Origin: an uncultured Bifidobacterium sp.
GTDB taxonomy: Bacteria; Bacteroidota; Bacteroidia; AKYH767-A; OLB10
NCBI GenBank assembly: GCA_964534995.1
Contig: CAZHSC010000002.1
Span: 16,213-80,212 of the forward strand
Direction: 5' to 3'
DNA: 64,000 bases
Shown: piece by piece, positions 3,578-42,830 of the stretch
How positions within the stretch are numbered: position 1 is the stretch's first letter
How the letters are laid out: every line of letters begins with the position of its first letter
Program-made: the position numbers and the translations under genes
The notes under the pieces: generated by a model
Database searches by the model: none
Told to the model about the DNA's origin: nothing
The model's input: the letters and a program-made list of their open reading frames with translations, nothing else

Positions 3578-4398
3578 ACAGGAATTTTAACATGTCGCAT
3601 ATCCCATCGCGACCTGAAAAACCAAGGAAAACAGGTTTAACCATGGTGATGGATAAAGGCTTAAGCATCCGTGAATGTGAAAACATTGTGGAGGCATCGG
3701 GTACTTACATTGACATCATAAAACTTGGTTTTGGAAGTTCACTCATCACTCCCCTCTTAGACCGAAAACTGGCATTTTTTAAGGAAGCAGGTATCCCTGT
3801 ATATTTCGGAGGTACCTTATTGGAAGCGTTTATCATTCGTGGACAATTTGATGAATACCTGCGCATCCTGGACAGGTTTAAAATGGAATACGCCGAAGTT
3901 TCCGATGGTTCTATCACGATGCCCCACCAGGAAAAATGCCATTACATACACCGGCTCAGTAAAAGGGTTACGGTAATCAGTGAAGTAGGCTCGAAAGAAG
4001 AAGGCATCCTTATCCGTCCCAACAAATGGATAGAAATGATGAATACGGAAATTGAAGCCGGCGCGTGGAAAGTAATCGCTGAAGCCCGGGAAAGCGGAAC
4101 CGTTGGTATTTACAGACCTAACGGTAAAGCGCATGTAGTGCTGATCAATAAAATTGCAGCCAAAGTACCCGTTGATAAAATCATCTGGGAGACTCCACAG
4201 AAGTCGCAGCAAGTGTATTTTATCAAACATTTCGGAGCCAACGTAAATCTTGGCAACATCGCTCCGCATGAAGTAATAGCGCTGGAATCGCTTCGGCTCG
4301 GCTTACGCAGCGATACTTTCTTTCAATATCTTGACAAGACCCTGTACAACCCGGTTGCCGAAATCAATATTAAAGGTGAAAAAACCCATACTGTTTAA
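3574..4398 (+). CDS. comA: Phosphosulfolactate synthase (ComA family)
   Basis: GLTMVMDKGL, IDIIKLGFGS, YFGGTLLEAF, EVSDGSI, SEVGSK, VIAEARESG, ANVNLGNI and LESLRLGLRSDT motifs. Confidence 0.9.
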   Translation: MNRNFNMSHIPSRPEKPRKTGLTMVMDKGLSIRECENIVEASGTYIDIIKLGFGSSLITPLLDRKLAFFKEAGIPVYFGGTLLEAFIIRGQFDEYLRILDRFKMEYAEVSDGSITMPHQEKCHYIHRLSKRVTVISEVGSKEEGILIRPNKWIEMMNTEIEAGAWKVIAEARESGTVGIYRPNGKAHVVLINKIAAKVPVDKIIWETPQKSQQVYFIKHFGANVNLGNIAPHEVIALESLRLGLRSDTFFQYLDKTLYNPVAEINIKGEKTHTV

Positions 4399-21745: not shown

Positions 21746-23587
21746 ATGAAAAAAATTATACACCTATTCATCTGTGTCACGGCTTCAATAAGCATGCAGG
21801 CACAAACATCAGGAGGACCTGATTTATATGGAAATATCTGGAAAGACAGCAACGACCCCAACGGTCCGGTATTCAATTGGATTGACGTCACCAATTCGGC
21901 CAATTCGGTAGAGGTATCAGGCCTTTCAGATGACAACACGGTAGGCCCCTTCTTTTTACCTGCGCCCTTTCAGTATTATTGGTATACGGTTGACCGCTTC
22001 TGGATCGGCTCCAATGGTTATATCATTTTCCAAAACGCGTCATTTGCGCATCCCTTCCCAATAATTCCAACACCGGATCCCACAAAAAATAATTTTCTGG
22101 CGCCTATGATGACCGATCTGAATTTAGATAAAACAGGAACGGCCACCGGCAATCCGGCCAGTTGTTATTATTGGACCAGCACCAACCAGGATTCGGTGAT
22201 TGTTGCCTGGGACAGTGTTCCCTTCTGGACTTCGGGTAATCCGAGTTATTCCGGAGAAAATACTTTCCAGATTATTTTAAGTTATGCGGACAGTACCATT
22301 ACCTTTCAATACCTCACCCAACTCGGTTCCAGTGTATCCACCACTTCTTTTTGTACCGTTGGAATTGAAAACGTTTCAGGAAATGACGGACTGATGTGGA
22401 ACCAGAATCTTTATCCTCCTACTCAATACGCTATTAAATTCTACCCGCCCGCATCCACTACACAGCAGATCAATGATGTGGGTACTTCCTACGCAGGAAA
22501 TTCAGAATCAGCGGCATTATTTCTATCTAAAAACCTGACAGGCTCCTATTATCTGAACTCCGAAGTTGTCAATACCGGCAATACGGTTGCTGTGCCCTTT
22601 AATGTGAGCGGTGTGGTACGCGCTTCACCAAGCAATGCCCTACAGGTTACCAATACTGTACTTACCGATACCTTACAACCCGGACAAACGCAGGCCTTAA
22701 ATATGCCAAATCCCTTCATACCGGTAAGCGCGGGCACCTTCCGTTTTATCAATACCACCACCTTACCCGGAGATGCAGCCGCCAGCAATAACATTAAAAC
22801 GCAGGAATTACAAGTGGTGGATACCACTTTAAACGAAATCGTTCTTTCGTATGACAACGGTGTTGCTGCAGCCACCGGTATTTCATGGAACGGAGGTGAC
22901 GGTGGATGTATGAATTATTTCATTCCGCCATTTTACCCTTGTGATATCAGTAAGGTAGCCGCCTACATTGTAACAGATCCAAACGGCTTTGGTTATACCA
23001 TGAAAGTATTAGATGACGATGGTCCCAACGGCACGCCGGGTTCACTCCTGGATTCGCTTTTTATCGCGCCCGGAACTTTCACAGCTGGAACTTATGTTAC
23101 TTCGGTACTCAATCAGTTGATTCGTATTGACAGTGGCGGTTTCTATGTATTATGGGGTATGGGTGGCGATGGTGTCGCGTTGGGTCAGGACCAGGTAGCC
23201 CCCTTCAGCAACCGCACATTTGAAGTATTAGGCGGTGTACCTTCTGAATACCGATACAGGGATATTGAAGATTTAATGATCCGTGCAGTTATCACACGCG
23301 TAGGAGCTGGCATAGATGAGGAACTGACTTCAGAAGGTATCGGACAATTTTACCCCAATCCGGCAACAGATGTGGCAAGTATCAATATTGACGCAAGTAT
23401 CATTCGCGCAGATCAGTTGCTTGTACAACTCTTTGATATTACCGGAAAGTTGGTGAGAAGCGAACGTGCAGGCATCACGAATGGCCGGATGGATATTTCC
23501 GTTCATAAACTTGAAGGCGGAATATACACTGCCCGGTTCATTGCGAACAACAAAGAATACAGCAGAAAACTGAATGTAATCCGATAA
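21746..23587 (+). CDS. T9SS type-A CTD secreted protein of unknown function
   Basis: Signal peptide, GGPDLYGNIWKDSNDPNGPVFNWID N-terminal module, C-terminal FYPNPA…RKLNVIR. Confidence 0.85.
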   Translation: MKKIIHLFICVTASISMQAQTSGGPDLYGNIWKDSNDPNGPVFNWIDVTNSANSVEVSGLSDDNTVGPFFLPAPFQYYWYTVDRFWIGSNGYIIFQNASFAHPFPIIPTPDPTKNNFLAPMMTDLNLDKTGTATGNPASCYYWTSTNQDSVIVAWDSVPFWTSGNPSYSGENTFQIILSYADSTITFQYLTQLGSSVSTTSFCTVGIENVSGNDGLMWNQNLYPPTQYAIKFYPPASTTQQINDVGTSYAGNSESAALFLSKNLTGSYYLNSEVVNTGNTVAVPFNVSGVVRASPSNALQVTNTVLTDTLQPGQTQALNMPNPFIPVSAGTFRFINTTTLPGDAAASNNIKTQELQVVDTTLNEIVLSYDNGVAAATGISWNGGDGGCMNYFIPPFYPCDISKVAAYIVTDPNGFGYTMKVLDDDGPNGTPGSLLDSLFIAPGTFTAGTYVTSVLNQLIRIDSGGFYVLWGMGGDGVALGQDQVAPFSNRTFEVLGGVPSEYRYRDIEDLMIRAVITRVGAGIDEELTSEGIGQFYPNPATDVASINIDASIIRADQLLVQLFDITGKLVRSERAGITNGRMDISVHKLEGGIYTARFIANNKEYSRKLNVIR

Positions 23588-23723: not shown

Positions 23724-25550
23724 TTATTGATTCAAGGACCTGTACAGCACATCTACCTGCAGAGATGAAATGGATTTAAGTTCCTTTTCTGAGGTAAGGC
23801 TGCCGTAAACAGATCTGAATATCAACTTACATTCAAAATTCTCATTCCCCGCTTTCAACATCATTTTTTCAGCTGGTACATTAAAAATTTCAAGAGCGTA
23901 ATCATTCGCTATACTTCTGATCATTTCCCTCAAGGGTATCCTTAGTTCGCTGCCATCTTTGTTCTTAAGCATCAGTGCATTATCCTCTTCTATAAAATCC
24001 ATCAACACAAAAGCACTTGTATCAAATGCCACCTTCCGTTCACTGTTATCCCCTTTGCCATAGAAATCAAACTTGAAAAGTACATCATAACCCTTAATAT
24101 CCAGGGCGGTACCGTACACCTCATTGGCGAACTGGAAATTCCCTGTATCCCCTGGTGACTGAAAGCGGACATCCACATACTCCAGGTTAAGATGTTCCAT
24201 CAATTTCATAACTACCATATAACGGCCTTGTTTTTCACTGATTGAATCCAGGTCTATATCCACATATGGCTGTAAACTTCCCACTCCATGTACAGAGATC
24301 AGATAGTCAACCAATGCACTCATCTTCATTTGTTCGACGGTAGTGACCATTTTGTTATCCTTAACCGCTACCATTTTTTCGTTTCGGATCATATCATTGT
24401 CAAGCAGCAATGCATGCAGGCGATGCCACTGATCGGACTTACTGACTGTAAAAGCATTCCAGGGGCTATAACCAGAGAAAAGAGCCGCAAAGAAAAGAGA
24501 CATGGGAATTACTTTAATATTCTTTATTCTGCTCAGCAGAAAATACACCGTATTCCCCAACAACCAAATTGCGAGAACTATTATGAAATAGCGGTTTTCT
24601 GTAATGCCGTACTCCCTGACACGAATATAAATTGAAAAAAAGAACAGTAAAATCAAAGGAAACAAAGCGATAAAGAAACCTTTCGTATATACTTTTATCC
24701 ATGTAAATTTACTGTCATTCCTCAGTGGCCATATCAATAAAAGCGCAAGAATACCGGCAGTAGAGAACCCAATAATCAGATAGGACACCCAGCCCCTTGG
24801 CCAATCCATCGTAATCAGAATTTTAAATCCATAAATGTATAGGATCAGGAGGTAAACGGTTACAAGCGGCAGCAAAACAAACTGCGTAAATTTCCTCAGT
24901 CCGCCCGGATAATCCAGTCTTTCTTCCAGCGTATGTATATCAACGGGTACTCCCGAAAGAAAAAACCAGGTATTAAAAACCGTAGCGATAAAAATAAACA
25001 AGCGGGGGTAGGTCTTATCATGAACCGACACCTCGAAAAGATTGTCTATTGCAAGAATCGCGAGCGCAAGCCCCGCAAAGAGAACAGCCGAATACAAAAC
25101 AGCAGTAAGCATCTGCAGGAAAAGGGACTTATTATATTGCCAGAAACCCTGTACTTCAGGATTCACCAGGTAAGGCAGGAAAGATACAGCCAGGTGCACA
25201 CTGAGGAATAAGAGGCAAAACCTGGCAATATCAATCTGTGTGAATGCAGCCGGTAAATACTTAAAATAAGCAGAAAAAGCTATAATAAAAAAGATATTCA
25301 GTAACCAAACGGAGCGAGTTTTGATATAATATCTTTCACAAAAAACAACCAGTCCTGTAAACAAAGGCAAGGCCAGCGAACAGGTAAGCACAAAATGCAG
25401 GCTGGTAATAAAACCTTCCTCCTTTTCATTCATGTCTACCATGTTGATGAGTACCAGACCTGCCGCGAAAGCGCAAAGCAGCGGGAGGGGAAAACGCCTG
25501 AGTGTGTCACCGGCTTTCACACCGATTTGAGTAAGGGAGTTGAATTTCAT
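23724..25550 (-). CDS. DUF4153-domain membrane protein
   Basis: Starts RRFPLPLL; FWQYNKSLF, VLLPLVTVYLLILYIY, RVREYGITENRY motifs; about 10 TM helices. Confidence 0.8.
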   Translation of the reverse strand: MKFNSLTQIGVKAGDTLRRFPLPLLCAFAAGLVLINMVDMNEKEEGFITSLHFVLTCSLALPLFTGLVVFCERYYIKTRSVWLLNIFFIIAFSAYFKYLPAAFTQIDIARFCLLFLSVHLAVSFLPYLVNPEVQGFWQYNKSLFLQMLTAVLYSAVLFAGLALAILAIDNLFEVSVHDKTYPRLFIFIATVFNTWFFLSGVPVDIHTLEERLDYPGGLRKFTQFVLLPLVTVYLLILYIYGFKILITMDWPRGWVSYLIIGFSTAGILALLLIWPLRNDSKFTWIKVYTKGFFIALFPLILLFFFSIYIRVREYGITENRYFIIVLAIWLLGNTVYFLLSRIKNIKVIPMSLFFAALFSGYSPWNAFTVSKSDQWHRLHALLLDNDMIRNEKMVAVKDNKMVTTVEQMKMSALVDYLISVHGVGSLQPYVDIDLDSISEKQGRYMVVMKLMEHLNLEYVDVRFQSPGDTGNFQFANEVYGTALDIKGYDVLFKFDFYGKGDNSERKVAFDTSAFVLMDFIEEDNALMLKNKDGSELRIPLREMIRSIANDYALEIFNVPAEKMMLKAGNENFECKLIFRSVYGSLTSEKELKSISSLQVDVLYRSLNQ

Positions 25551-25609: not shown

Positions 25610-25617
25610 TAAATTTG
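25610..25617 (+). promoter_or_regulatory. -7 box (TAAATTTG) immediately before the hslR start
   Basis: Exact TAnnTTTG ending 1 nt before the ATG at 25619. Confidence 0.55.
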
Positions 25618-25618
25618 C

Positions 25619-26014
25619 ATGGTGACAGTATCTATCCACAAAGTAAGAATTGACAAATTTCTGTGGGCCATCAGGCTTTTTAAAACCCGCCAGCTGGCAG
25701 CCGAAGCCTGTGAAAAGGGCCGGGTGAAGATAGCTGATGTGGCTGTAAAAGCAAGCCGGCCCGTCAAGCCGGATGAGAAAATTATCATTCACCGCGGTCC
25801 CTGGTATCAACATGTAAAAGTAAATAGCATCACTGAAAGAAGAATGTCGGCTAGCCTCGTTAAAGATTATTATGACGACGTCACACCAGCGGAAGAACTG
25901 GAAAGGTTAAGACTCCACCAGGCAGCACTCGCGGCCTGGGATATCAAAAGAGGAACCGGCAGACCTACCAAAAAGGACAGAAGGCAAATGGAAGATTTTT
26001 TAGGAGACTGGTAA
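25619..26014 (+). CDS. hslR: Ribosome-associated heat shock protein Hsp15 (S4 domain)
   Basis: RIDKFLWAIRLFKTRQLAAEAC and GRPTKKDRR. Confidence 0.9.
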   Translation: MVTVSIHKVRIDKFLWAIRLFKTRQLAAEACEKGRVKIADVAVKASRPVKPDEKIIIHRGPWYQHVKVNSITERRMSASLVKDYYDDVTPAEELERLRLHQAALAAWDIKRGTGRPTKKDRRQMEDFLGDW

Positions 26015-26101: not shown

Positions 26102-27103
26102 ATGACACCCGCTGTAAGTATTCTGCTGCCTTTTTGCAATGAAGGTATTTGGCTGGATGAAGCCATTAGCAGTATACGTCAACAAACGTTCAAGGACTGG
26201 GAGTTATTGCTTATAAGCAATAAATTTCACAGGGAAAGCTATGCCATTGCAGAAAAACACAAATACAATGACCGCAGGATTGTTTTGTTTGAAGAACGGG
26301 AAGCAGGAATCGCGCATGCCCTCAATGCAGGACTTTGCATAGCGAAAGGTAAATACATTGCCAGGATGGATGCCGATGACCGGAGCCACCCCACGCGTAT
26401 CGAAAAACAATATACTTACCTCGAAAGCCATCCCGCAGCAGACGTAGTAAGCACCCGTACTCAATTACATCCCGGCGGTGAGCAGGGCGAAGGATTCAGA
26501 TATTACATCAACTGGCAAAATTCAGTGATCAGCCCTGACGAACATGCACGCGTACGATTTATTGAATCCCCCCTGGCCCACCCCACGGTGATGTTCAGGA
26601 AATCACTTGTTGACGCTTTTGGCAATTACGATACGGGAGAAATTCCTGAAGATTACGATTTATGGTTGCGCTGGATGGAACATGGGGTCCCCTTTTATAA
26701 AATCCCGGAGTATCTGCATTACTGGCGGGACCATACCAACCGGCTCAGCAGAACATCCTCCCATTATACTTCTGAAAAATTCAACCAGGTTAAGTCAGCC
26801 TCTCTGAGCCGCTACATCCTGAAACATGCCGGGGGGCGAAAGATCGTTATATGCGGTGCCGGACGTCAGGTCAGGAAAAAGGCGCAAATGCTACTTGAGC
26901 ACTCCGTTGAAATTTTCGCTTATACCGATGTAAAAAAAAGAAATCTACAAGGGCTGCATTTTATTCCCGCGCTTGAAAATGAATTGTCAGCCGGTTACTT
27001 TTATGTCAGTTTTATTTCAGGCAGAGGGAAAAGTGATGAACTCCGTAATTTTCTTGGTTCAGGAAACTTAAAAGAGGGAACAGATTTTATCATCGCCGGC
27101 TAA
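26102..27103 (+). CDS. GT2 glycosyltransferase with C-terminal Rossmann-like domain (QTGAL/B3GNTL1-like)
   Basis: VSILLPFCNE, MDADD (DxD), AHPTVMFR, PEDYDLWLR; C-terminal IVICGAGRQ…AYTDV…LKEGTDF. Confidence 0.85.
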   Translation: MTPAVSILLPFCNEGIWLDEAISSIRQQTFKDWELLLISNKFHRESYAIAEKHKYNDRRIVLFEEREAGIAHALNAGLCIAKGKYIARMDADDRSHPTRIEKQYTYLESHPAADVVSTRTQLHPGGEQGEGFRYYINWQNSVISPDEHARVRFIESPLAHPTVMFRKSLVDAFGNYDTGEIPEDYDLWLRWMEHGVPFYKIPEYLHYWRDHTNRLSRTSSHYTSEKFNQVKSASLSRYILKHAGGRKIVICGAGRQVRKKAQMLLEHSVEIFAYTDVKKRNLQGLHFIPALENELSAGYFYVSFISGRGKSDELRNFLGSGNLKEGTDFIIAG

Positions 27104-27169
27104 AAGTAATTAAACATACCATGTGCAAAAGACCCGCATTGCGGTTCGTTTTCCACTAAAATTACCCTA

Positions 27170-27177
27170 TAGCTTTG
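27170..27177 (+). promoter_or_regulatory. -7 box (TAGCTTTG) for the porin-family gene
   Basis: Exact TAnnTTTG 25 nt before the ATG at 27203. Confidence 0.55.
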
Positions 27178-27202
27178 ATCCCTGGCGGAAGGGTCAGCTA
27201 CT

Positions 27203-27898
27203 ATGAAACGAATCGGCATTTTATTACTTTTTTGCAGTATCATGACGAATGCTCCTGCCCAGAAAAACACGGTACAATACGGTTTTCTGACTGGAGTTAG
27301 TTTTGTGAATCTGTATGGCAATCCATTCATTGAAACATTTCTCGAACCGGAAGCCAGGTTTACCGGAGGCCCTGCTATTTACTATCCATTCAGCAAGCAT
27401 TTCAGTGTAAGAAGCCATTTGTTTTTTGAATCCAAAGGTGCAGGTGGAATATTTCCCTTGTTTGATGAAGCCGGTGACCTGCTGGGTTTTTACAATGCGG
27501 ATATCAGCTATAAATATCTTACGGTACCTTGTCTGATTGATTATTTTTTCGGCAGGAGGTTAAAAGCCCACCTCACCGCAGGGCCTTTTATCGGAACTAT
27601 GCTGAGCCAGCGGACTACTTTTACCGAGCCGGTGAGTGGTGAAACCCTGAGTGAAAGGGGCACCTCCGATTATATTCCATGGGATGGTGGGCTCATTGTG
27701 GGTGGCGGTGCGAGATACGCGATCAATAAAAGAATCAACATCAGTTTAGAAGGCAGATTCAACATTGGAATGACCAATATTGTTTCTCGACCGGTATTAG
27801 GCAGCCTGACTATTTACACGCTTGCCACCCAGATACTGGCAGGCGTATATTATACACCGGGATACTATGCGGGAAAAGTCAGAGGAATTAATCCTTAA
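27203..27898 (+). CDS. Outer membrane beta-barrel (porin family, OMP_b-brl_2/PorT-like)
   Basis: Signal peptide; YLTVPCLI, GPFIGTML, EGRFNIGMTNI strands typical of Bacteroidota 8-strand barrels. Confidence 0.8.
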   Translation: MKRIGILLLFCSIMTNAPAQKNTVQYGFLTGVSFVNLYGNPFIETFLEPEARFTGGPAIYYPFSKHFSVRSHLFFESKGAGGIFPLFDEAGDLLGFYNADISYKYLTVPCLIDYFFGRRLKAHLTAGPFIGTMLSQRTTFTEPVSGETLSERGTSDYIPWDGGLIVGGGARYAINKRINISLEGRFNIGMTNIVSRPVLGSLTIYTLATQILAGVYYTPGYYAGKVRGINP

Positions 27899-27926
27899 AA
27901 AGTTTACATTCAAAAACAATATTTAC

Positions 27927-29222
27927 TTATTCCCAATGATCTTTTTTAAAAAATAAACAGGCATCTCCATAGCTTAAAAACCTGTATTCATTTTGTAACG
28001 CATACTTGTAAATTTTCTTCCAGTCATCGCCCACCATTGCAGCCACCAATAATAACAGCGTACTGTTTGGCTGGTGAAAATTAGTAAGCAAAGCCTCCAC
28101 CAACTGCCAATTATAACCGGGAGTAATGATAAGGTGGGTGCGGCCTGTCAGTTCAGTGATACCCAGACGTTCCATGTAACGGATCACTGCCTGCAAGGCG
28201 GTTTTACAATCGGGAAGTTCACCGGCCGAATATTGATACGGCAACCACTGATCAATAATTATATCACCAATCCGGTCTTTTTGCATGATCAGGGTTACAC
28301 CCACCCAGTATAAACTTTCCAGGGTCCTGGCCGAGGTAGTACCCACTGCTACCAGGGTATGTAATCCTTTGGCAACAGCAAGGCGACGGATAAGCTCCAA
28401 CTGAACAACAAAACGTTCGCCATGCATGGAATGCCCTTCCATAGTTTCGCTTGTAACCTGCCGGAAGGTACCAGCACCCACATGCAGGGTAAGCCGTTCC
28501 AGCATGAAACCTTTTTGCCGCAATTCCATCAGCATTTCTTCAGTGAAATGTAAACCCGCCGTTGGGGCTGCCACAGAACCTTCCTGGTCCGCATAAACGG
28601 TATTATAGGTGCTGATATCTTCCAGGGTGCTCTTCCTTTTCAAATATGGAGGAATCGGCAGTTCCCCTAACAACTCCAGTAAAGCCGAAAAAGTGTAAGC
28701 CGGATGATCCCATGAAATACGAATGATAAAATCCCTTTCCTGCTGATCCAGTTTTGTAAACGTTACCACAACGTCCCCAAGCGGGCCAATGATGGATCTA
28801 CTCAATGATTTTTTCTTCCACCTGCGCGCATTGCCAATCATACATTTCCAATCGACCGGACCGGTAGCATTAAAAACATCATATATGGACAATTTTCCGG
28901 CCGGTTCAAGGCAAAAGCACTCCAGTTCACTACCTGACTCTGTATGCAGCTTAATCCGGGCTTTGATTACCCTGGTGTCGTTAAAAACCAGGAGGGAAGA
29001 AGCCGGAAGAAAAGAAGCTATATTCCTGAAAAAACTTCCCTGTATTACGGGTGCTTTATACACCAGCAGCCGTGAAGCGGACCTGTCGGCAAGCGGAAAG
29101 ACGGCTATTCGGTCCTCCGGAAGAGTATAACTGTAGTCTTTAATTTGTAATGCCTGTGGGTTTTTCAATGTTTCCATTTGCGGCACAGCCATCTTTTCGG
29201 AATTGCCCTTGTTCTGTGACAT
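27927..29222 (-). CDS. queA: S-adenosylmethionine:tRNA ribosyltransferase-isomerase
   Basis: SRLLV, VFNDTRVIKAR, LPIPPY, GSVAAPTAGLHFT, TLHVGAGTF, AVGTTSARTLES, TNFHQPNSTL, YRFLSYGD. Confidence 0.93.
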   Translation of the reverse strand: MSQNKGNSEKMAVPQMETLKNPQALQIKDYSYTLPEDRIAVFPLADRSASRLLVYKAPVIQGSFFRNIASFLPASSLLVFNDTRVIKARIKLHTESGSELECFCLEPAGKLSIYDVFNATGPVDWKCMIGNARRWKKKSLSRSIIGPLGDVVVTFTKLDQQERDFIIRISWDHPAYTFSALLELLGELPIPPYLKRKSTLEDISTYNTVYADQEGSVAAPTAGLHFTEEMLMELRQKGFMLERLTLHVGAGTFRQVTSETMEGHSMHGERFVVQLELIRRLAVAKGLHTLVAVGTTSARTLESLYWVGVTLIMQKDRIGDIIIDQWLPYQYSAGELPDCKTALQAVIRYMERLGITELTGRTHLIITPGYNWQLVEALLTNFHQPNSTLLLLVAAMVGDDWKKIYKYALQNEYRFLSYGDACLFFKKDHWE

Positions 29223-31012: not shown

Positions 31013-33094
31013 ATGACGATGAAAAAAATCTTACTGCTCATAGCAATTGAATATTCCCAGGTATGTTTTTCACAAATTTCCATTACTTCCGGTGATATGC
31101 CATCGGCAGGAGATACTGCCAGAAGGACACAGGCTCCCCTTACACTTGGATTAAACTACCAGGCAAGCGGGGCAAACCACACCTGGAATTTCAGTAATTT
31201 AAGATATCAGTCGCAACAGGTGGATACTTTCTATTCCGTTTCCTCCACCAATTTCCTGTACGCCCTCTTTTTTTCGAATTTACCCTTTAATCCCAACCGC
31301 GCGAATGTTGCTACCACGGGACAGGCATTTCCAAGTAACCCTTTTATCACCATCACCGATCCCTACAATTTTTATTACAGGTCATCAGCGGCCTATGAGC
31401 AAGTAGGACTGGGTGCCAGTTTTCAGGGAATACCTTTACCTGTCGCCTTCACGCAAAAAGATAAAATTTATCAGTTCCCGCTCAGTTTTGGGGATGTTGA
31501 TACTTCGTATTCTTCCTGGAATGCCAGTTTACCCGGTATGATATATTACGGTTCGAGTCTCACGAGAATCAATCAGGTGGACGGATGGGGCACCCTCAAT
31601 ACGCCATACGGCACCTATCAGGCGCTTCGGGTAAAGAGCACCTTACTGGCATCAGACACCCTTTATCTCGACTCCCTGTCCATTGGTATGCAGATCAACA
31701 GGCCCGTTACCCATGAATATAAATGGCTGGTAAACGGTGAAATTGTACCGGCCCTGCAAATTACCACTACCGAGGTATTCGGTATTGAAATCATCAGCTC
31801 CATATTATTCAGGGATGTTGTTCCGGCAATAACCACCGCTGCATTGCCTGTTGCCATTTGCGCAGGCAGCAGTTTCCAGGTTCCATTTACTGAATTTGGT
31901 ACCTTCAACAGCGGGACTTTGTTCAGCCCGGGTAATGTATTCACTGCGCAACTTTCCGACGCCAACGGTGATTTCAGCAATGCCATTACCATAGGCGACA
32001 GTACCACCAACCAATCAGGGAATTTCGGAGTGAATATTCCGGCAGGAACACCGGCGGGTAACGGCTACCGCATACGCATTATTTCGTCCAACCCTGCCGT
32101 TATCGGATCTGACAATGGTACGGATATACGTATTGACAACGGGCTTCCGGCAGCAAGTATTATCGCTGCTGGCAGTCAGGGTCCCTTTTGCTGGGGTGAC
32201 AGCACGGAGCTTAATGGAAGCCAGGTTAACGATGTAAGCTACCAGTGGATGCTCAACGCGGTCGCACTGAGCGGTGCAAACGCTTTGAGTCATTTCGCGA
32301 ATCAACCCGGTGATTATACCCTCAACACCATTAATGCATGTGGAGTAAGCAGCTCAAACACCATCAGCATCGTATTTGACAGCCTTCCACAGAACGCTGT
32401 GATCGCCTCCACCGGAAACACCACTTTCTGTGAAGGAGATTCTGTTCTGCTCAATGCCGGTATGTTCAGCGGTGTGACCTACCAATGGCAGCAAAACGGG
32501 GTGGATATTCCGGGCGCCCTGAGCACTGCCTTATCGGTGAGTCAGACAGGGACATATACCTTAAACACTATTAACCATTGCGGCACCAGCTCCTCCAATT
32601 CCATACAGGTCAATGCTCATCCACTCCCCCCTTTACCTGTTATCAGTGCATCCAATGATACCCTGTTTACCACAGGCGGCTTTTCCTACATCTGGTACCT
32701 GAACGGAAATGTAATACCCGGAGCGGTGGATTCCTTTCTGGTGGTAAATACGTCCGGACAATATGAAGTAGGTATCACCAACATCGATTCCTGCAGCAGT
32801 CTTTCCAATCCTTACAATTATATAAGTACGGGTATGAACGGCGGCATCGGTGGAAGCGGCATCCGCCTATTTCCAAACCCGGTTCGTGATTTATTAAGTT
32901 TACAACTTGCAGAAAGAGGCGAATATGTAATTGAAATACTCAGCGCCGAAGGAAAAAAGGTAAGCGGACCACATTTGTTTAGCGGTTCAGGCATACAAAT
33001 CATGCTTCCCGCATCCCTGGAAAGCGGAATATATTTCATCAGAATACAAAATGAGTTTACAAGCCTGACGCAACGTTTTGTTCTCAGCCGTTAA
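31013..33094 (+). CDS. T9SS type-A CTD secreted protein with Ig-like repeats
   Basis: QISITSGDMPSAGDT N-module, VDGWGTLNTPYG, tandem FC.GDS..L…YQW…GDYTL…CG repeats, LFPNPV CTD. Confidence 0.85.
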   Translation: MTMKKILLLIAIEYSQVCFSQISITSGDMPSAGDTARRTQAPLTLGLNYQASGANHTWNFSNLRYQSQQVDTFYSVSSTNFLYALFFSNLPFNPNRANVATTGQAFPSNPFITITDPYNFYYRSSAAYEQVGLGASFQGIPLPVAFTQKDKIYQFPLSFGDVDTSYSSWNASLPGMIYYGSSLTRINQVDGWGTLNTPYGTYQALRVKSTLLASDTLYLDSLSIGMQINRPVTHEYKWLVNGEIVPALQITTTEVFGIEIISSILFRDVVPAITTAALPVAICAGSSFQVPFTEFGTFNSGTLFSPGNVFTAQLSDANGDFSNAITIGDSTTNQSGNFGVNIPAGTPAGNGYRIRIISSNPAVIGSDNGTDIRIDNGLPAASIIAAGSQGPFCWGDSTELNGSQVNDVSYQWMLNAVALSGANALSHFANQPGDYTLNTINACGVSSSNTISIVFDSLPQNAVIASTGNTTFCEGDSVLLNAGMFSGVTYQWQQNGVDIPGALSTALSVSQTGTYTLNTINHCGTSSSNSIQVNAHPLPPLPVISASNDTLFTTGGFSYIWYLNGNVIPGAVDSFLVVNTSGQYEVGITNIDSCSSLSNPYNYISTGMNGGIGGSGIRLFPNPVRDLLSLQLAERGEYVIEILSAEGKKVSGPHLFSGSGIQIMLPASLESGIYFIRIQNEFTSLTQRFVLSR
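32159..32820 (+). repeat. Two full plus one partial ~80-aa Ig/PKD-like repeats
   Basis: PFCWGDSTEL…YQWMLN…GDYTLNTINACG vs TFCEGDSVLL…YQWQQN…GTYTLNTINHCG. Confidence 0.7.
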
Positions 33095-33741: not shown

Positions 33742-33749
33742 TAAATTTG
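33742..33749 (+). promoter_or_regulatory. -7 box (TAAATTTG) for the flippase
   Basis: Exact TAnnTTTG; the ORF-track TTG start lies inside it, so the real ATG is probably 33765. Confidence 0.6.
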
Positions 33750-33764
33750 CCAGCCTGTCAAGCC

Positions 33765-35210
33765 ATGCAAAAAAAATTTGTCACCAACCTGGCATTTCTT
33801 CTGTTCCTGAACCTGTTGATCAAGCCGTTCTGGATTCTGGGCATTGACCGTGCCGTCCAGAATACCGTAGGAGCTTCATCATACGGACTTTACGCGGCAC
33901 TATTTAACTTTTCCTTCCTTTTTAACATCCTGCTCGATATCGGGATTACCAATTTCAACAACCGGAATATTTCACAACATAATCACTTGTTGCAAAAGCA
34001 TTTTTCGGGCATCCTGGCGCTGAGGCTGCTGCTGGCTTTTGCCTACTTCCTCTTCAGTCTTGGGGTGGCATGGCTGTTGGGCTACCGTGAGGAACAGCTG
34101 TGGATACTGCTGGTGCTGCTGCTCAACCAGGCGCTCATATCCTTTATCCTCTACCTGCGATCCAACCTGGCCGGGCTCCAACTTTTCCGTATCGACAGCA
34201 TGATATCCATCCTGGACCGGTTCATCATGATAGTACTTTGTGGTATTTTGCTTTGGGGTGGTATTACGGACATTCCCTTCCAAATCGAATGGTTTGTATG
34301 GGCACAAACCATCGCCTATGCCATCACCGCCATATTCACTTTTCTCATCCTGGCATCCCGGGTAAAAAATATCTCTCTGAAATGGGACCCAAAATTTTTC
34401 ATGATCATCCTTAAACAAAGCTATCCCTTTGCCATTCTCATCCTGTTAATGACATTTTACAACCGTATCGACTCGGTGATGCTCGAAAGGATGCTGCCTG
34501 ATGGTGCAGAGCAGGCTGGTATTTATGCCCAGGCCTATCGCCTGCTGGATGCTGCCAATATGATTGCCTACCTGTTTTCAGGTTTGTTGCTGCCGATGTT
34601 CTCACACATGCTAAAGCATAAGAAACCCATCGAAGAGTTGGTTGAACTGTCTTTTTCCTTTATTGCCATACCTGCCATCATGGTGATGGCCTGCGGCGTT
34701 TTTTACAGTGAAGAAATTATGGGTTTGCTGTATCATGCACACGTCAAGGAATCAGGTGATGTTTTTATATTAATCATTAACTGTTTCCTTGCCATTAGTT
34801 CCGTTTACATTTTTGGCACCCTGCTCACCGCCAATGGAAACCTTACGCATCTCAATATGATTGCAACCGGTGGTATGTTGCTAAACATTTTGATCAACTT
34901 TATACTGATACCCCGCTATCAGGCTACCGGAGCGGCGGTTGCAAGTGTGGTCACCCAGTTTTTATCAGCGGGTGCACAAATACTGCTTGCACATCATATA
35001 TTCAGGTTCCGGATGAGGTGGAGACTGGCGGTCCGTTACAGCCTGTTCACCGGTATCGCATTTCTACTCTTTTGGTTTACCAGTCAGTTTTCATCCTTCT
35101 TCCTTTGGAGGGCGGGATTCGGGGTATTTTCCTGTTTCATGATCGCCTTATTATTGAAGCTCATCCGGCCCTTTGAATTATTCAGACTCATCAAATACGG
35201 TGACAATTAG
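33765..35210 (+). CDS. Wzx-type oligosaccharide flippase
   Basis: About 12-14 TM; LLDIGITNFNNR, RIDSVML, GIYAQAYRL, NFILIPRYQATGAA. Confidence 0.88.
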   Translation: MQKKFVTNLAFLLFLNLLIKPFWILGIDRAVQNTVGASSYGLYAALFNFSFLFNILLDIGITNFNNRNISQHNHLLQKHFSGILALRLLLAFAYFLFSLGVAWLLGYREEQLWILLVLLLNQALISFILYLRSNLAGLQLFRIDSMISILDRFIMIVLCGILLWGGITDIPFQIEWFVWAQTIAYAITAIFTFLILASRVKNISLKWDPKFFMIILKQSYPFAILILLMTFYNRIDSVMLERMLPDGAEQAGIYAQAYRLLDAANMIAYLFSGLLLPMFSHMLKHKKPIEELVELSFSFIAIPAIMVMACGVFYSEEIMGLLYHAHVKESGDVFILIINCFLAISSVYIFGTLLTANGNLTHLNMIATGGMLLNILINFILIPRYQATGAAVASVVTQFLSAGAQILLAHHIFRFRMRWRLAVRYSLFTGIAFLLFWFTSQFSSFFLWRAGFGVFSCFMIALLLKLIRPFELFRLIKYGDN

Positions 35211-35239
35211 AATGTTAACTGCTATTTGACAGATTAAGT

Positions 35240-35247
35240 TATTTTTG
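35240..35247 (+). promoter_or_regulatory. -7 box (TATTTTTG) for wzz
   Basis: Exact TAnnTTTG 21 nt before the ATG at 35269. Confidence 0.5.
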
Positions 35248-35268
35248 CCATCCCAAATCGGTGATCGC

Positions 35269-36258
35269 ATGAACCCAAAGCCAGAAGCATCAGAAAAGCT
35301 GGATGCTATACGCCTCTTAAAATTTATCCTTAAGTGGAAAAAACAGTTGATTATCACAGGTATTTCAGCCATCATAGTATCCTTCCTGTTTACGCTTCCC
35401 CAGATCATGACACCCATGTACAAAGCTACCACCGTCATATATCCGGTAAATATTCAAACGTATTCAAAGGAGACTTCTACCGAACAGATGGTGCAGCTGT
35501 TGAATTCAGAAGATGTGAAGGAAAATCTTATCAAAGCATTTAACCTTTACCGGCATTATGATATTGACAGTACCGGAAAATACCCGCGCTTTGAAATCAT
35601 GAAGCGCCTTGAGGAGAATATTTCCATTTCAAAAACTGAATTTGAATCCATCGAAATCAACATTCTGGATGAAGATCCTGTTCTTGCCGCGAGTATGTGC
35701 GATTCCCTGCTGCATTATGTAGACCGGAAAGCCATCAGTCTGGTGCGTATAAGGGCAAAAGAAGTGCTGGTGATTGCCTACAACCAGATGATGGAGAAAA
35801 AGCAGGAACTGGACTCTATGGAAAACGCCATTAAAAACATCCGGGTGCAATACGGCATCAGTGATTTCGAGAATATGGTAGAAGGCTTTTCCAGGGAATA
35901 CTATCGTTCGCTGAGCAGCGGGGGAGCTAACCAAAAGATGGAGACTACGCGTAAAAACCTGGAAGAAAAGGGAGGAGAATATGTTTTTCTGAAGGAAATG
36001 CTCTGGAAAGTAAGGGGGCAGTACTCCGATTACAAACTCCGCTATGAACAAGCCCTCACCGACATGAAAAAGGAACTGGAATTTCATAACACCATTACCA
36101 AAGCGATTCCGCCCGAGCGGAAAGATTCCCCCAAGCGGACCCTCATCATGTTAATTTTCACAGCGAGTGTGATGTTCGTAGCCTTGCTCATCATCATTTA
36201 CCAGGAGCATTACAAATCCCGCTTTGAAAAGGAAATTACAGGAACCATTAATTCCTGA
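35269..36258 (+). CDS. Wzz-like chain-length determinant
   Basis: N-terminal TM, PMYKATTVIYP, coiled-coil periplasmic region, AIPPERKDSPKR before the C-terminal TM. Confidence 0.85.
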   Translation: MNPKPEASEKLDAIRLLKFILKWKKQLIITGISAIIVSFLFTLPQIMTPMYKATTVIYPVNIQTYSKETSTEQMVQLLNSEDVKENLIKAFNLYRHYDIDSTGKYPRFEIMKRLEENISISKTEFESIEINILDEDPVLAASMCDSLLHYVDRKAISLVRIRAKEVLVIAYNQMMEKKQELDSMENAIKNIRVQYGISDFENMVEGFSREYYRSLSSGGANQKMETTRKNLEEKGGEYVFLKEMLWKVRGQYSDYKLRYEQALTDMKKELEFHNTITKAIPPERKDSPKRTLIMLIFTASVMFVALLIIIYQEHYKSRFEKEITGTINS

Positions 36259-36262
36259 TACC

Positions 36263-37732
36263 TTGAACGACCTGATTCGCATAGCCCCCGGAAGAGAGCA
36301 GGTTCGTCTTTTTTACCTGCTCACCGCTTTATTCGGTGTGCTGCTTATTTGGGGTTTTTTAAAGGGTATGGTATTTCTTGCCGGATTGCCGGTACTCTTT
36401 TTAGTATTGCTGTTAATAATATTCAGGCTTGACCTTGCCGCTTTTTTAGCTATTTTTATTACTCCCTTTTCCATTAACCTTGCCCATACCTCCTTAGGCA
36501 TAGGGGTTAGTTTACCTTCCGAACCATTGTTGTTTGCCTTGTTCCTGATCTTCTGGCTCAAGGTATTCCTGGACGGTGGCCTTGACCACAGGATTATAAA
36601 GCACCCGGTAAGCATCTTAATTTTTATACACCTGGCCTGGTATCTCGTCACCACAGTAAGCAGTTCAATGCCCCTTGTTTCCCTGAAATCAACGCTGGCC
36701 CGTTTTTGTTACGTGAGCGTTGGTTACTTTATGATGCTGTATCTTTTTTCAAAAAAGGAAAACATGAAGAAGTTCATCTGGATGTATCTTGTTCCCCTGC
36801 TGGCAGTAGTAGCTTATACCATTGCCATACATTCCAGTGAGGGTTTCAGCGAGGAAGCTGCGCATACGGCCATGGTACCATTTTATAATGACCATACGGC
36901 TTATGCCGCTGTGTTAAGTTATTTTATCCCGGTAGTACTGGGTTTCGCCATCGATAAGGAGAGCGGTAAAAAAGCCCGTAATATCGCCTGGCTTGTTTTA
37001 GTAGTACTTATTACTGCCACTGTGTTATCCTACACCAGGGCAGCCTGGGTAGGCCTGGTAGCCGCTCTGGGTTGTTCACTGGTATTCCTCCTGCGCATCA
37101 AAGCGGCGCTGGTATATGCCGCATTCGCGATGCTGATTGTAGTGGCTTTTCTTTTCAGGACACAGATCACCATGCAACTGGAAAGCAATGAAGAGGTTTC
37201 TTCTGACGATTATGCCTCGCATGTGCAGTCCATAGGTAACATATCCAGTGATGACTCAAACATTGAACGCCTGAACCGCTGGGCCTGTGCTTTAAGGATG
37301 TTCCAGGACCGGCCCCTGCTTGGCTTTGGCCCGGGTACTTACATGTTCAAGTACGGAGCCTATCAGAAATACAGTGAAAGATCGGGTATCAGCACCAATT
37401 TCGCGGAAGGGGGCGGCTCGCACAGTGAATACCTGGGCCCCTTGTCGGAACAGGGATTTATAGCCCCCTTGATTTTTTTGCTCCTCATCGCGGTAACGGT
37501 ACAAACCAGCGCCACCTATATTAAAAACTGCAGGAACAGTTCGAACAGAATTCTGGCTAGAAGTGTATTACTGGGACTGGTTACCTATTGGGTACACGGT
37601 GTATTAAATTATTTTCTGGATACGGAAAAAGCATCCATTCCTTTCTGGGGTTACATTGCCATTCTCGTGGCCTTGCAATTGTTTCACAGGGATGAAAAGC
37701 CGTCAGTGTTTCACACGCCGGATGCTAAGTAA
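36263..37732 (+). CDS. O-antigen ligase/polymerase (Wzy_C) family protein
   Basis: Multi-TM; LSYTRAAWVG, SNIERLNRW, DRPLLGFGPG, HSEYL; TTG start at 36263 or 36224. Confidence 0.85.
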   Translation: MNDLIRIAPGREQVRLFYLLTALFGVLLIWGFLKGMVFLAGLPVLFLVLLLIIFRLDLAAFLAIFITPFSINLAHTSLGIGVSLPSEPLLFALFLIFWLKVFLDGGLDHRIIKHPVSILIFIHLAWYLVTTVSSSMPLVSLKSTLARFCYVSVGYFMMLYLFSKKENMKKFIWMYLVPLLAVVAYTIAIHSSEGFSEEAAHTAMVPFYNDHTAYAAVLSYFIPVVLGFAIDKESGKKARNIAWLVLVVLITATVLSYTRAAWVGLVAALGCSLVFLLRIKAALVYAAFAMLIVVAFLFRTQITMQLESNEEVSSDDYASHVQSIGNISSDDSNIERLNRWACALRMFQDRPLLGFGPGTYMFKYGAYQKYSERSGISTNFAEGGGSHSEYLGPLSEQGFIAPLIFLLLIAVTVQTSATYIKNCRNSSNRILARSVLLGLVTYWVHGVLNYFLDTEKASIPFWGYIAILVALQLFHRDEKPSVFHTPDAK

Positions 37733-40129: not shown

Positions 40130-40834
40130 TCAGTTATTCACAATAATCTGTGCATTCAAGGCCTGGTCACCGCTGCCGCCCACAAATCCTTTGGCATATA
40201 CGGTATAAATTTTACCGGCGGTTAAACTGATTCCAGGAAGCGGTAACACTACGTTCGCAGTACCGGCCAACCTGACTTCGAGGTTATAAGTACCTGCATC
40301 CAGTGGTGTAAAATCTGTATAGTCCTTGAAACTTATTTTGCCGAAAACAACGCCACCACCCGTCAGGGCAACATCCACTGCAGGGGCATCCGGAGAGAGG
40401 TGAATAAAACGTACATGCGCCTTACCGGAAGCCGGTGCAGTAAGATTGTCTTCAATGAAGAGGGCATTCAGCTTACTGACGCTGTCCACAGCGAACAAAG
40501 TGTAATTTTTATTTTTAGTAAAGCCAAGGTTGGCGGCAAGGGCCGTAGTGGTAGTTCCGGCCACATTCACTTTAATATTACGGGTTCCTTCAGTTACAGT
40601 CAGATAAGCCGTATTGTCGAGAAATTCAACCGGAGATGTGTTTACCTTGCTGTTGTCCAGCAGGAGGTCAACTGCCGGTGCATCCGGAGAAGCATGAACA
40701 ATCATCAGCCGGGCGTTGCCGGCAGGCGTTGCATCATCATCATCATCACTGCATGAACTTACAGAGAACATTGTAAGTAATGCAATACTCAGCATAGAAA
40801 GAAATTTCAAAGAATACATGGTGTTTTTTTTCAT
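40130..40834 (-). CDS. DUF4397-domain lipoprotein
   Basis: Lipobox VSS-C followed by SDDDDD; two copies of [VI]HxSPDAPAVD. Confidence 0.88.
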   Translation of the reverse strand: MKKNTMYSLKFLSMLSIALLTMFSVSSCSDDDDDATPAGNARLMIVHASPDAPAVDLLLDNSKVNTSPVEFLDNTAYLTVTEGTRNIKVNVAGTTTTALAANLGFTKNKNYTLFAVDSVSKLNALFIEDNLTAPASGKAHVRFIHLSPDAPAVDVALTGGGVVFGKISFKDYTDFTPLDAGTYNLEVRLAGTANVVLPLPGISLTAGKIYTVYAKGFVGGSGDQALNAQIIVNN

Positions 40835-40963
40835 TGTCTTGTTGTTTTATGTGTTTGGAAGGAAAAACAGAAGAAATGAAAAATTGTTAATCCGTATGAG
40901 GCCCTTTTCTCAAATTTTTATCAGAAGTTCTTTAAAAAGTACAATTGCCACGCTTAAAAAGCC

Positions 40964-40971
40964 TATCTTTG
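40964..40971 (+). promoter_or_regulatory. -7 box (TATCTTTG) for typA
   Basis: Exact TAnnTTTG 47 nt before the ATG at 41019. Confidence 0.65.
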
Positions 40972-41018
40972 CGGGCGCTAAAAACACCTCTCTCTGGCGG
41001 AGAGACATTAAATATAAA

Positions 41019-42830
41019 ATGCAGAATATCAGGAACATAGCAATTATTGCTCACGTTGACCACGGTAAAACCACCCTTGTTGACAAGATTTTACATCAAA
41101 CCGAGCTCTTCAGGGAAAATGAAAAAACCGGGGATTTAATACTCGACAACAATGACCTTGAAAGGGAAAGGGGAATCACCATTGTCGCTAAAAACGTATC
41201 AGTTCAGTATAAAGGTACCAAAATTAACATCATCGACACCCCGGGTCACGCTGATTTTGGAGGTGAAGTGGAAAGGGTCATGAATATGGCCGATGGGGTA
41301 TTGTTGCTGGTGGATGCTTTTGAAGGCCCCATGCCGCAAACCAGGTTTGTGCTATCCAAAGCGCTCGAGATGGGTAAAAAAGCCATCCTCGTTATTAATA
41401 AAGTGGACAAAGAGAATTGCAGGCCCGACGAAGTACACGAAAAAGTTTTCGATCTTTTCTTTCACCTGGACGCTACCGAAGAGCAGCTGAACTTCCCGAC
41501 CGTTTATGGTTCCTCCAAGCAGGGCTGGATGAGCCGTGACCTGAAAATACCCAGTGATAACATTACGCCTTTGCTGGATACTATCATTGATTACTTTCCG
41601 GCACCGGAATATGTGGAAGGCAGCCCGCAGGTATTGATTACCTCCCTTGACTTTTCCACCTATGTTGGACGGATTGCCATCGGAAGGATCAGCCGTGGAT
41701 CGCTCAAAGAAAACCAACCGGTATCGCTCATGAAAAAAGATGGCAGCATCAGGAAAATGAGGGTGAAAGAAACTTTTGTTTTTGAAGGCCTTGGCAGGAA
41801 AAAGGTAGGGGAAGTATTTTGCGGAGATATCTGTGCCATTACCGGCATTGAGGATTTTGATATCGGCGACACCATTGCCGATTTTGAAAACCCCGAGGCG
41901 CTGAAGCCCATATCGGTTGATGAACCTACCATGTGCATGCTGTTCACCATCAACAACTCACCCTTTTTCGGTAAAGAAGGCCGCTTTGTAACGTCAAGGC
42001 ATATCCGCGATCGCCTGTACAAGGAACTTGAGAAAAACCTCGCCATGCGTATCCAGGAAACGGATTCTCCCGACAGCTATCTCGTGTATGGCCGGGGAGT
42101 ATTGCACCTTTCCATTCTGGTGGAAACCATGAGGAGGGAAGGTTATGAACTGCAGGTTGGCCAGCCCCAGGTAATCATCAAGGAAATTGACGGTGTTAAA
42201 CATGAACCTGTCGAACACCTTACCGTTGATGCGCCCGAGGAAGTTGCAGGAAAAGTGATTGAACTGGTTACCCAGAAAAAGGGAGAGCTCAAAGTGATGG
42301 AGCCGAAGGGAGATTTACAACACCTCGAATTTGAAATACCCGCCCGGGGACTTATCGGCTTGCGCAGTAATGTGCTTACTGCCACCGCGGGACGTGCCAT
42401 CATGGCCCACCGCTTTGCGAAATTTGAACCCTGGAAAGGCCCCATTCAGGGAAGGATATCCGGCGTATTGCTTGCCAAGGAAACCGGCACCGCTACCCCC
42501 TACTCCATTGACCGCATGCAGGACAGGGGTATTTTCTTTATCGATCCGGGTGAGCAGGTATATGCAGGACAGGTGATCGGGCAACATATCCGTCCTGACG
42601 ACCTGGTCATAAACTTATGTGAAGCCAAAAAACTGACAAACATGCGTGCCTCAGGCAGTGATGACAATGTAAGGATAGCTCCTAAAATCAATTTCTCGCT
42701 GGAAGAGTCGATGGAATACATCGAGAAAGATGAATACCTGGAAATCACACCCAAGTCATTACGCATGCGGAAAATTTACCTGGATGAGAATGAACGTAAA
42801 CGCAATGCCAAGAAAATGGCAGAAGCCTGA
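41019..42830 (+). CDS. typA: Translational GTPase TypA/BipA
   Basis: MQNIRNIAIIAHVDHGKTTLVD, ERERGITI, DTPGHADFGGEVER, NKVD; real start 41019, not 40716. Confidence 0.96.
   Translation: MQNIRNIAIIAHVDHGKTTLVDKILHQTELFRENEKTGDLILDNNDLERERGITIVAKNVSVQYKGTKINIIDTPGHADFGGEVERVMNMADGVLLLVDAFEGPMPQTRFVLSKALEMGKKAILVINKVDKENCRPDEVHEKVFDLFFHLDATEEQLNFPTVYGSSKQGWMSRDLKIPSDNITPLLDTIIDYFPAPEYVEGSPQVLITSLDFSTYVGRIAIGRISRGSLKENQPVSLMKKDGSIRKMRVKETFVFEGLGRKKVGEVFCGDICAITGIEDFDIGDTIADFENPEALKPISVDEPTMCMLFTINNSPFFGKEGRFVTSRHIRDRLYKELEKNLAMRIQETDSPDSYLVYGRGVLHLSILVETMRREGYELQVGQPQVIIKEIDGVKHEPVEHLTVDAPEEVAGKVIELVTQKKGELKVMEPKGDLQHLEFEIPARGLIGLRSNVLTATAGRAIMAHRFAKFEPWKGPIQGRISGVLLAKETGTATPYSIDRMQDRGIFFIDPGEQVYAGQVIGQHIRPDDLVINLCEAKKLTNMRASGSDDNVRIAPKINFSLEESMEYIEKDEYLEITPKSLRMRKIYLDENERKRNAKKMAEA

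Follow-up and report, generated by a model that had tools for sequence, protein, structure and literature searches.

A gene near queA in a 64,000-nucleotide stretch of DNA deposited as an uncultured Bifidobacterium sp. and placed by GTDB in the Bacteroidota (contig CAZHSC010000002.1, positions 16,213 to 80,212, forward strand; the whole stretch is called the window here) raises the question of whether bacteria attach a sugar to the tRNA nucleoside queuosine (Q). Galactosyl-queuosine and mannosyl-queuosine (galQ and manQ) are, to our knowledge, regarded as animal-specific, and their purpose is still debated; the enzymes that write them were reportedly identified only in 2023, QTGAL by Zhao et al. 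in Cell that year. Reviews place galQ and manQ in animals, and the queuosine-glycosylation literature that we searched reports, in the texts and abstracts consulted, neither a glycosylated Q in bacteria nor a bacterial homologue of QTGAL. The original prediction, made from the letters of the window, held that the gene encodes a glycosyltransferase of family 2 (GT2) resembling QTGAL, also named B3GNTL1, over its full length. Judging from sequence comparison, the 333-amino acid (aa) product almost certainly belongs to a large bacterial family that is homologous to QTGAL in both of its domains, and it is a bacterial variant of this RNA glycosyltransferase for which we found no description in the searchable literature.

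The homology spans the whole protein. A human B3GNTL1 sequence, used solely as bait, retrieved a 361-aa protein (P0121) that is 100% identical to it, together with more than 100 mammalian proteins named "B3GNTL1-like" or "queuosine-tRNA galactosyltransferase" (NCBI, UniRef); P0121 is in addition 97% identical to UniRef and NCBI proteins named B3GNTL1 or queuosine-tRNA galactosyltransferase. All six B3GNTL1 strings given in the original prediction can be found in P0121, and their alignment with the window protein has the register stated there. In a BLASTP comparison, residues 1-330 of the window protein align to residues 16-358 of P0121 with 23% identity (E 3e-17). Profiles of 90 bacterial and ~51 eukaryotic sequences, the latter taken from 150 diverse QTGAL-like top matches to P0121 in a library of 1.84 billion proteins, align by hhalign with E 2.9e-46 for the GT domains and, for the C-terminal domains (C-domains) alone, with a probability of 98.6% and E 1.1e-15 over 82 columns. 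The colinear, full-length relationship that had been proposed thus includes the C-domain, which the best matches cover. In reciprocal searches with hidden Markov models (HMMs), a database size set to 1.8e9 still left three matches in each direction with E values under 0.001. Other members of the family, from outside the Bacteroidota, are 27-34% identical to eukaryotic QTGAL representatives with E ~1e-35, and the best high-scoring segment pair against these representatives extends over more than 90% of the length in 44 of the 90 bacterial sequences.

By sequence and predicted structure, the protein is a cytosolic, inverting GT-A enzyme of the GT2 family fused to a small basic Rossmann-like C-domain. 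The open reading frame (ORF) is as originally described and contains all three of the peptides quoted from it; it and its parts are as follows.

26102..27103, + strand: whole gene, ATG start, 333 aa; soluble two-domain GT2 of the bacterial QTGAL-like family.
26102..26767, + strand: GT-A catalytic domain, residues 1-222 (Pfam, Foldseek, hhalign).
26369..26380, + strand: D90-A-D92-D93 (DxD), the metal and nucleotide-sugar motif, invariant in 37 family members.
26513..26521, + strand: W138-Q-N140 motif, which among the compared sets only QTGAL shares with the family.
26648..26653, + strand: E183-D184, the GT2 "ED" motif within P-E-D, invariant in the family (E204-D205 in QTGAL).
26771..26827, + strand: linker helix, residues 224-242 (DSSP of the AlphaFold2 model), preceded by R214-L-S-R217...Y222.
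26837..27100, + strand: C-terminal basic Rossmann-like domain, residues 246-333, ~90 aa.

Pfam PF00535 (Glycos_transf_2) matches residues 6-169 (E 9e-24), residues ~235-333 lie outside every Pfam and NCBIfam model, and the protein contains no hydrophobic segment (maximum KD19 1.07). The DxD residues D90, D92 and D93 and the pair E183-D184, assigned as the catalytic-base motif by analogy with GT2 enzymes in general, align to human D113, D115 and D116 and E204-D205, respectively. With the family alignment as input, AlphaFold2 returned a confident two-domain model (predicted local distance difference test score, pLDDT, 93; predicted TM-score, pTM, 0.90), for which Foldseek retrieved only GT-A folds (TarP, SpsA, RmlT, heparosan synthase; E ~1e-14). 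Modelled by itself, the C-domain (pLDDT 91) has the topology beta-alpha-beta-beta-beta-alpha-beta of a Rossmann-like unit. A Foldseek search of PDB with this isolated domain found nothing better than E 0.016, with TM-scores of 0.45-0.57, the weak matches being NAD(P)-binding halves, phosphoribosyltransferases, Rex and the N-domain of VioB/PglD; because these are generic Rossmann-like halves, the domain cannot be named by structure. A sequence search of PDB likewise returned no QTGAL structure, only generic GT2s. A glycine-rich loop between beta1 and alphaA and two conserved basic residues stand at the position of a Rossmann-like phosphate-binding site, which suggests that the ligand of the modelled C-domain bears phosphate, for example an RNA backbone or a nucleotide.

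What ties the family to QTGAL specifically are, on these alignments, the C-domain, the W-x-N motif, the signature columns of the C-domain and its basic charge. QTGAL and the bacterial family are soluble proteins with the same layout, GT-A first and then a basic Rossmann-like unit of ~90-100 aa, and both carry the DxD, ED and W-x-N motifs together with G-A-G-(R/K)-x-x-(R/K), D-V and E-G-x-D-(F/Y). The DxD motif is generic to GT2s; its conservation reaches 97% or more in each of the three sets, bacterial, eukaryotic and phage. The W and N of W-x-N, which we derived in the present analysis as a feature of the QTGAL family and for which we have no literature source, are conserved in 100% of the bacterial family and in 93% and 90% of QTGAL sequences, respectively (human W156 and N158), whereas in related phage GT2s the motif is absent or gapped (W in 11%). 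In the bacterial C-domain the signature runs I-(W/C)-G-A-G-R-x-x-R, then A-(F/Y)-x-D-V, then E-G-x-D-F, and the columns common to both groups are I-W-G-A-G-(R/K)-x-x-(R/K), L264, A-(F/Y)-x-D-V and E-G-x-D-(F/Y). Bacterial and eukaryotic C-domains have median isoelectric points of 9.7 and 9.2, respectively, compared with 5.7 and 6.1 for the acidic GT domains. The C-domain HMM and gene-neighborhood work covered the best 80 of at least 593 GTDB loci; among the 3369 ORFs of these 80, the eukaryotic C-domain HMM scored strongly only in family members (up to 52.8 bits), many of which score low too (median 13 bits), and its six matches outside the family were close to noise level (8.7 bits at most, with E 0.65). 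The same model had no match among the ORFs of 49 viral loci. Each group also has features of its own, the bacterial family an invariant R-L-S-R-T...Y segment and R308-G309, and QTGAL an insertion of ~15 aa in the C-domain.

The bacterial family is broad. A protein database clustered at 90% gave 3392 matches at E <=1e-5, of which the top 120 are 330-360 aa long (one is 429 aa) and named only "glycosyltransferase," and at least 593 stretches from GTDB species representatives, in more than 10 phyla, encode relatives. Members are soluble, single-copy proteins of ~335 aa, and almost all of the best 80 loci match residues ~1-333. These 80 span the Bacteroidota, Verrucomicrobiota/Opitutaceae, Kiritimatiellota, Desulfobacterota, Gammaproteobacteria, Acidobacteriota, Chloroflexota, Planctomycetota, Gemmatimonadota, Nitrospinota, and Cyanobacteria-related and other lineages; such phyla generally have Q, in a sample that is biased. 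Isolates among the carriers include Nitratidesulfovibrio oxamicus NCIMB 9442, N. liaohensis XJ01 and Kiritimatiellaeota strain B1221, whereas E. coli has Q-tRNA and is not known to encode a member of the family. Clustering of the ORFs around the gene found no neighbor in more than 14 loci, the commonest being a hybrid histidine kinase, LpxD, UvrC, an aldehyde dehydrogenase, GpsA and an M28 peptidase. Among the Pfam families most frequent in the immediate neighbors, 74 upstream and 71 downstream, there is no Q-pathway, glycosyltransferase, Wzx or Wzy family, and six annotated contexts likewise lack neighboring glycosyltransferase, Wzx and Wzy genes.

The search with human QTGAL, which had been expected to reach the bacterial family, gave nearly only QTGAL-like proteins among its top 150 library matches (E down to 1e-51), presumably eukaryotic ones; the library names no organism for them, both of the contigs inspected look eukaryotic, and one of the matches (P0380) is a multi-GT2 repeat protein and no relative of QTGAL. 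Metagenomic QTGAL-like proteins with 42-47% identity to the human protein were rejected as bacterial bridges, their contigs having a eukaryotic look. Intron-less genes of this kind, 44-47% identical to human (P0272 and P0306; loci L138-L140), lie on contigs of 37-41 kb with a low coding density typical of protists and with sparse, fragmentary gene calls. These contigs are probably protist DNA, with QTGAL widespread outside animals. On IMG/VR contigs (L089-L137), GT2s with the same "ARMDADD" motif as the family match residues 5-240 with 25-33% identity and lack the tail; they are phage or giant-virus proteins, some of them multidomain proteins of 766-849 aa, and one is on a GVMAG contig. A viral two-domain family, with a possible link to 7-deazaguanine DNA modification, was dropped because the viral scan yielded relatives of the GT domain only.

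The following features flank the gene.

25610..25617, + strand: TAAATTTG, a -7-box-like motif directly before hslR, by consensus match only; candidate promoter of hslR and the GT gene.
25619..26014, + strand: S4-domain Hsp15/HslR-like gene, upstream of and co-oriented with the GT gene; probable operon partner.
27170-27177, + strand: TAGCTTTG, matching the Bacteroidetes -7 box TAnnTTTG, ahead of the outer-membrane protein gene.
27203..27898, downstream of the GT gene: OMP_b-brl_2 gene, encoding a small outer-membrane beta-barrel.
27927..29222, - strand: queA (PF02547, E 5e-93), convergent with the GT gene.

This layout agrees with the original description in its co-oriented hslR-like gene, its convergent queA, the 823 bp that separate the two stops (27103 for the GT gene, 27927 for queA), and the -7 box at 27170; the intervening gene, described as a porin, does encode a barrel, and its identity as a porin is not established. 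The presence of queA indicates that the host makes queuosine-tRNA, such that the substrate base is predicted to be available. The proximity of queA had also been offered as a hint of function, which did not hold up. The adjacency recurs only in the lineage of the window (GT proteins 49-55% identical), where it is part of a syntenic block of 15 kb comprising PriA, CorA, a methyltransferase, Zip, a type IX secretion system protein, in some cases DUF4153, the S4 protein, the GT, the outer-membrane protein, queA and RNase HII, and queA is absent from beside the GT gene in the 80 loci of other species. Because the entire block is syntenic, the adjacency reflects conserved gene order and not a functional link, and we rejected it as evidence of function, neighbor clustering and Pfam scans having found no Q gene and no conserved partner. 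The hslR-like gene and the GT gene, in turn, are likely co-transcribed, since in relatives (L082-L085) the hslR stop overlaps the GT start and the 87-bp gap between them here contains no TAnnTTTG motif in a motif scan, which found a single further + strand copy in the region besides that at 27170, namely the one at 25610. The Hsp15-like protein scores 60 bits against NCBIfam PRK10348, under the model cutoff.

Several other genes of the neighborhood deserve mention. The window QueA has 431 aa as compared with ~345 aa in the models, an extension or insertion of ~75-85 aa; Pfam aligns its residues 28-423 to 322 model positions, and the NCBIfam equivalog NF001140 scores it at 317.5, just below the cutoff of 324, in two stretches. 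The enlarged form is kept in relatives (428 aa in L081, 412 aa in L084). Divergent from hslR, 23724-25550 (- strand) encodes a DUF4153 membrane protein of 608 aa that occupies the same position in two of three related contexts (L081 and L082/L083, not L084/L085). Beyond queA, secreted-protein genes and RNase HII, which separate it from the GT gene, a small envelope-glycan module at 33747-37732 (+ strand) encodes a Wzx-like flippase (Polysacc_synt), an unannotated ORF of 337 aa and a Wzy_C/O-antigen-ligase-like protein.

Glycosylation of Q34, the Q at tRNA position 34, or of a closely related RNA-borne acceptor is the most likely function, and we hold this reading tentatively. It leads because the only characterized relative with the same architecture acts on Q-tRNA: going by database names and PMC12518689, QTGAL is the sole characterized protein that combines the GT-A domain with this C-domain. 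Support for it comes from the conserved basic C-domain, a housekeeping-like distribution, neighborhoods that lack glycan clusters and a host that has Q. A beta linkage is the expected product of an inverting GT2 acting on a UDP-alpha-sugar (UDP, uridine diphosphate). In galQ the galactose is beta-linked to the homoallylic 2-OH of Q, and QTGAL knockout abolishes this modification (PMC12518689); such a beta-galactoside is consistent with an inverting GT2. What we infer about donor, acceptor and C-domain is the following. The GT-A domain would bind a UDP-hexose via D90-x-D92-D93 and a divalent metal, with D184 as the base; the basic C-domain, with its glycine-rich loop followed by two conserved Arg/Lys residues, would hold a phosphate-rich acceptor, for which the anticodon arm of a Q-containing tRNA is the best candidate; and the hexose would be placed onto a hydroxyl of the Q cyclopentenediol. 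Binding of tRNA by the C-domain is a prediction, supported by the conserved basic charge. Other enzymes that act on the cyclopentenediol of Q34, QTMAN/GTDC1 and GluQRS, have no similarity to the window protein that we could detect; the first is a GT-B mannosyltransferase and the second a paralogue of aminoacyl-tRNA synthetases, and their folds and chemistry are unrelated to those of the QTGAL-like family. QTGAL moves galactose from UDP-Gal onto the 2-OH of the Q34 cyclopentene in tRNA-Tyr; in contrast to the hosts of QTGAL, the host here is a bacterium that makes Q de novo. The wider proposal, that bacteria of many phyla glycosylate their own tRNA Q with an enzyme of this family and that eukaryotic QTGAL descends from it, is slightly more doubtful, and we advance it as a possibility.

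Several observations weigh against Q34 as the acceptor. The window protein is only 23-25% identical to QTGAL, compared with up to 34% for other bacterial members. An HMM of the eukaryotic QTGAL GT domain gives phage GT2s 90-115 bits, the median of the bacterial family being 111, and the GT domains of the family are 28.6% identical to phage GT2s and 24.8% to QTGAL. In a neighbor-joining tree of GT domains, the eukaryotes are monophyletic in 98 of 100 bootstraps and the bacteria in 70, and a clade of bacteria plus eukaryotes as opposed to phage GT2s is found in only 5; the closest non-eukaryotic sequence is bacterial for 26 of 30 eukaryotic proteins, and the closest outsider is a phage GT2 for all 35 bacterial ones. 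Because phage GT2s score alike and this tree recovers no joint clade, the GT domain alone does not tie the protein to QTGAL, and we discarded GT-domain similarity by itself as a diagnostic. Five residues that are invariant in bacteria (R190, D210, R214, R217 and R308) are not kept in QTGAL, R214 and R217 being 97-100% conserved in bacteria and not in eukaryotes, so that acceptor recognition may differ from that of QTGAL. No Q-pathway gene recurs as a neighbor, either in the 80 loci or among the 74 nearest upstream and 71 nearest downstream genes. In bacteria tRNA-Tyr belongs to the class II tRNAs, which the substrate in eukaryotes does not. A homologue is no guarantee of the modification, since C. 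elegans has a QTGAL gene and galQ was not seen on its pre-tRNA-Tyr (PMC12313893). Finally, a 2026 compendium of bacterial RNA modifications gives only Q and glutamyl-queuosine (gluQ) at position 34 (PMC13602947).

The strongest alternative, which we consider less likely, is that the protein is an envelope- or storage-glycan GT2 acting on a lipid-linked or polyanionic polymer, as TarP and RmlT act on teichoic acids; the C-domain would then serve polymer binding or oligomerization, and QTGAL would be a later re-purposing of the scaffold. The GT domain is nearer to generic GT2s than to QTGAL, and its closest characterized neighbors are EpsE, TuaG, SpsA, TarP, RmlT and the chondroitin and heparosan synthases. 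A Wzx/Wzy_C pair lies 6.6 kb downstream in the window, and 2 of 71 downstream neighbors are sugar-nucleotide epimerases or dehydratases. Conserved glycan-cluster context, however, is found in none of more than 85 loci, and the position of the GT gene outside an envelope-glycan cluster, as originally predicted, holds here and in more than 80 other genomes. The protein is soluble and without a membrane anchor, and all phyla with the family keep a single copy of strictly the same architecture; envelope-glycan GT2s usually vary from strain to strain. Although GT2s of the SpsA/EpsE/TuaG type share the GT-A fold and the nucleotide-sugar-binding half, and give the top NCBIfam, PDB and Foldseek matches to residues 1-225, they have neither the C-terminal domain nor W-x-N and usually lie in glycan operons, and the scores of the window protein against the NCBIfam equivalogs are far under the cutoffs (EpsE, 104 versus 450 bits; TuaG, 73 versus 400; WcaA, 35-36 versus 382-496). 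TarP and RmlT do resemble the window protein in joining an extra C-terminal domain to GT-A, with an anionic polymer, wall teichoic acid, as acceptor, but they align poorly past the GT-A core (root mean square deviation 8-10 A), and their C-terminal domain differs from that of the family, the isolated C-domain retrieving neither of them and matching nothing in PDB better than the E 0.016 given above.

About equally likely in our judgment is a different phosphate-bearing cytosolic acceptor, such as another nucleoside of RNA or DNA, a protein, or a metabolite or cofactor that resembles a nucleotide, with only a scaffold for anionic substrates common to the family and QTGAL. The five bacteria-invariant residues not kept in QTGAL and the lack of linkage to Q genes would fit such an acceptor, as would the weak likeness of the C-domain to nucleotide-binding Rossmann-like modules (phosphoribosyltransferases, Rex and the VioB/PglD N-domain, at the TM-scores above). 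Against this, nothing points positively to any specific alternative, and the sole functional precedent for this architecture is Q-tRNA, going by database names and PMC12518689. That the protein is a generic GT2 with an unrelated tail, its C-terminal similarity being due to chance or convergence, is very improbable: the weak single-sequence BLASTP match of the tail to human QTGAL (E 0.034) speaks for it, and it is contradicted by the profile-profile alignment, which is in the same register, by the reciprocal HMM matches, by the signature columns common to both C-domains, and by the same order of secondary structure at a colinear position.

Elsewhere in the window, type IX secretion C-terminal sorting domains (Por_Secre_tail), seen in relatives and in the window, occur in large secreted proteins at 21746-23587 and 44893-47253 and fit a Bacteroidota host; 31013-33094 looks similar to these proteins, and the closest annotated relative contig is labeled "Bacteroidia bacterium" (GCA_016788185.1). 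At 3574-4398 (+ strand), a ComA-type (2R)-phospho-3-sulfolactate synthase gene (E 5e-88) adjoins a gene for a tetratricopeptide repeat protein in this Bacteroidota-like genome and may be relevant to sulfonate or sulfonolipid metabolism. The BipA/TypA gene at 40716-42830 (+ strand), called with a TTG start, overlaps the DUF4397 gene at 40130-40834 (- strand) by ~120 bp; its true start is probably further downstream, since the GTPase domain begins at residue 104.

As a conserved bacterial counterpart of QTGAL, the family would give several thousand proteins now labeled only "glycosyltransferase" a working name and a hypothesis. Should the acceptor differ from Q, the family would still be a housekeeping-type GT2 of wide distribution whose anion-binding domain is undescribed. 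If Q34 is indeed the acceptor, the family would extend the hypermodifications of bacterial tRNA, for which only Q, epoxyqueuosine (oQ) and gluQ are listed today, and would offer a genetically tractable system in which to address the purpose of Q glycosylation. It would also indicate the origin of the eukaryotic enzyme, in that the Q base and the enzyme adding a sugar to it would both be bacterial in origin. With candidate genes in the thousands, the question of whether bacteria glycosylate queuosine can be put to a direct test.

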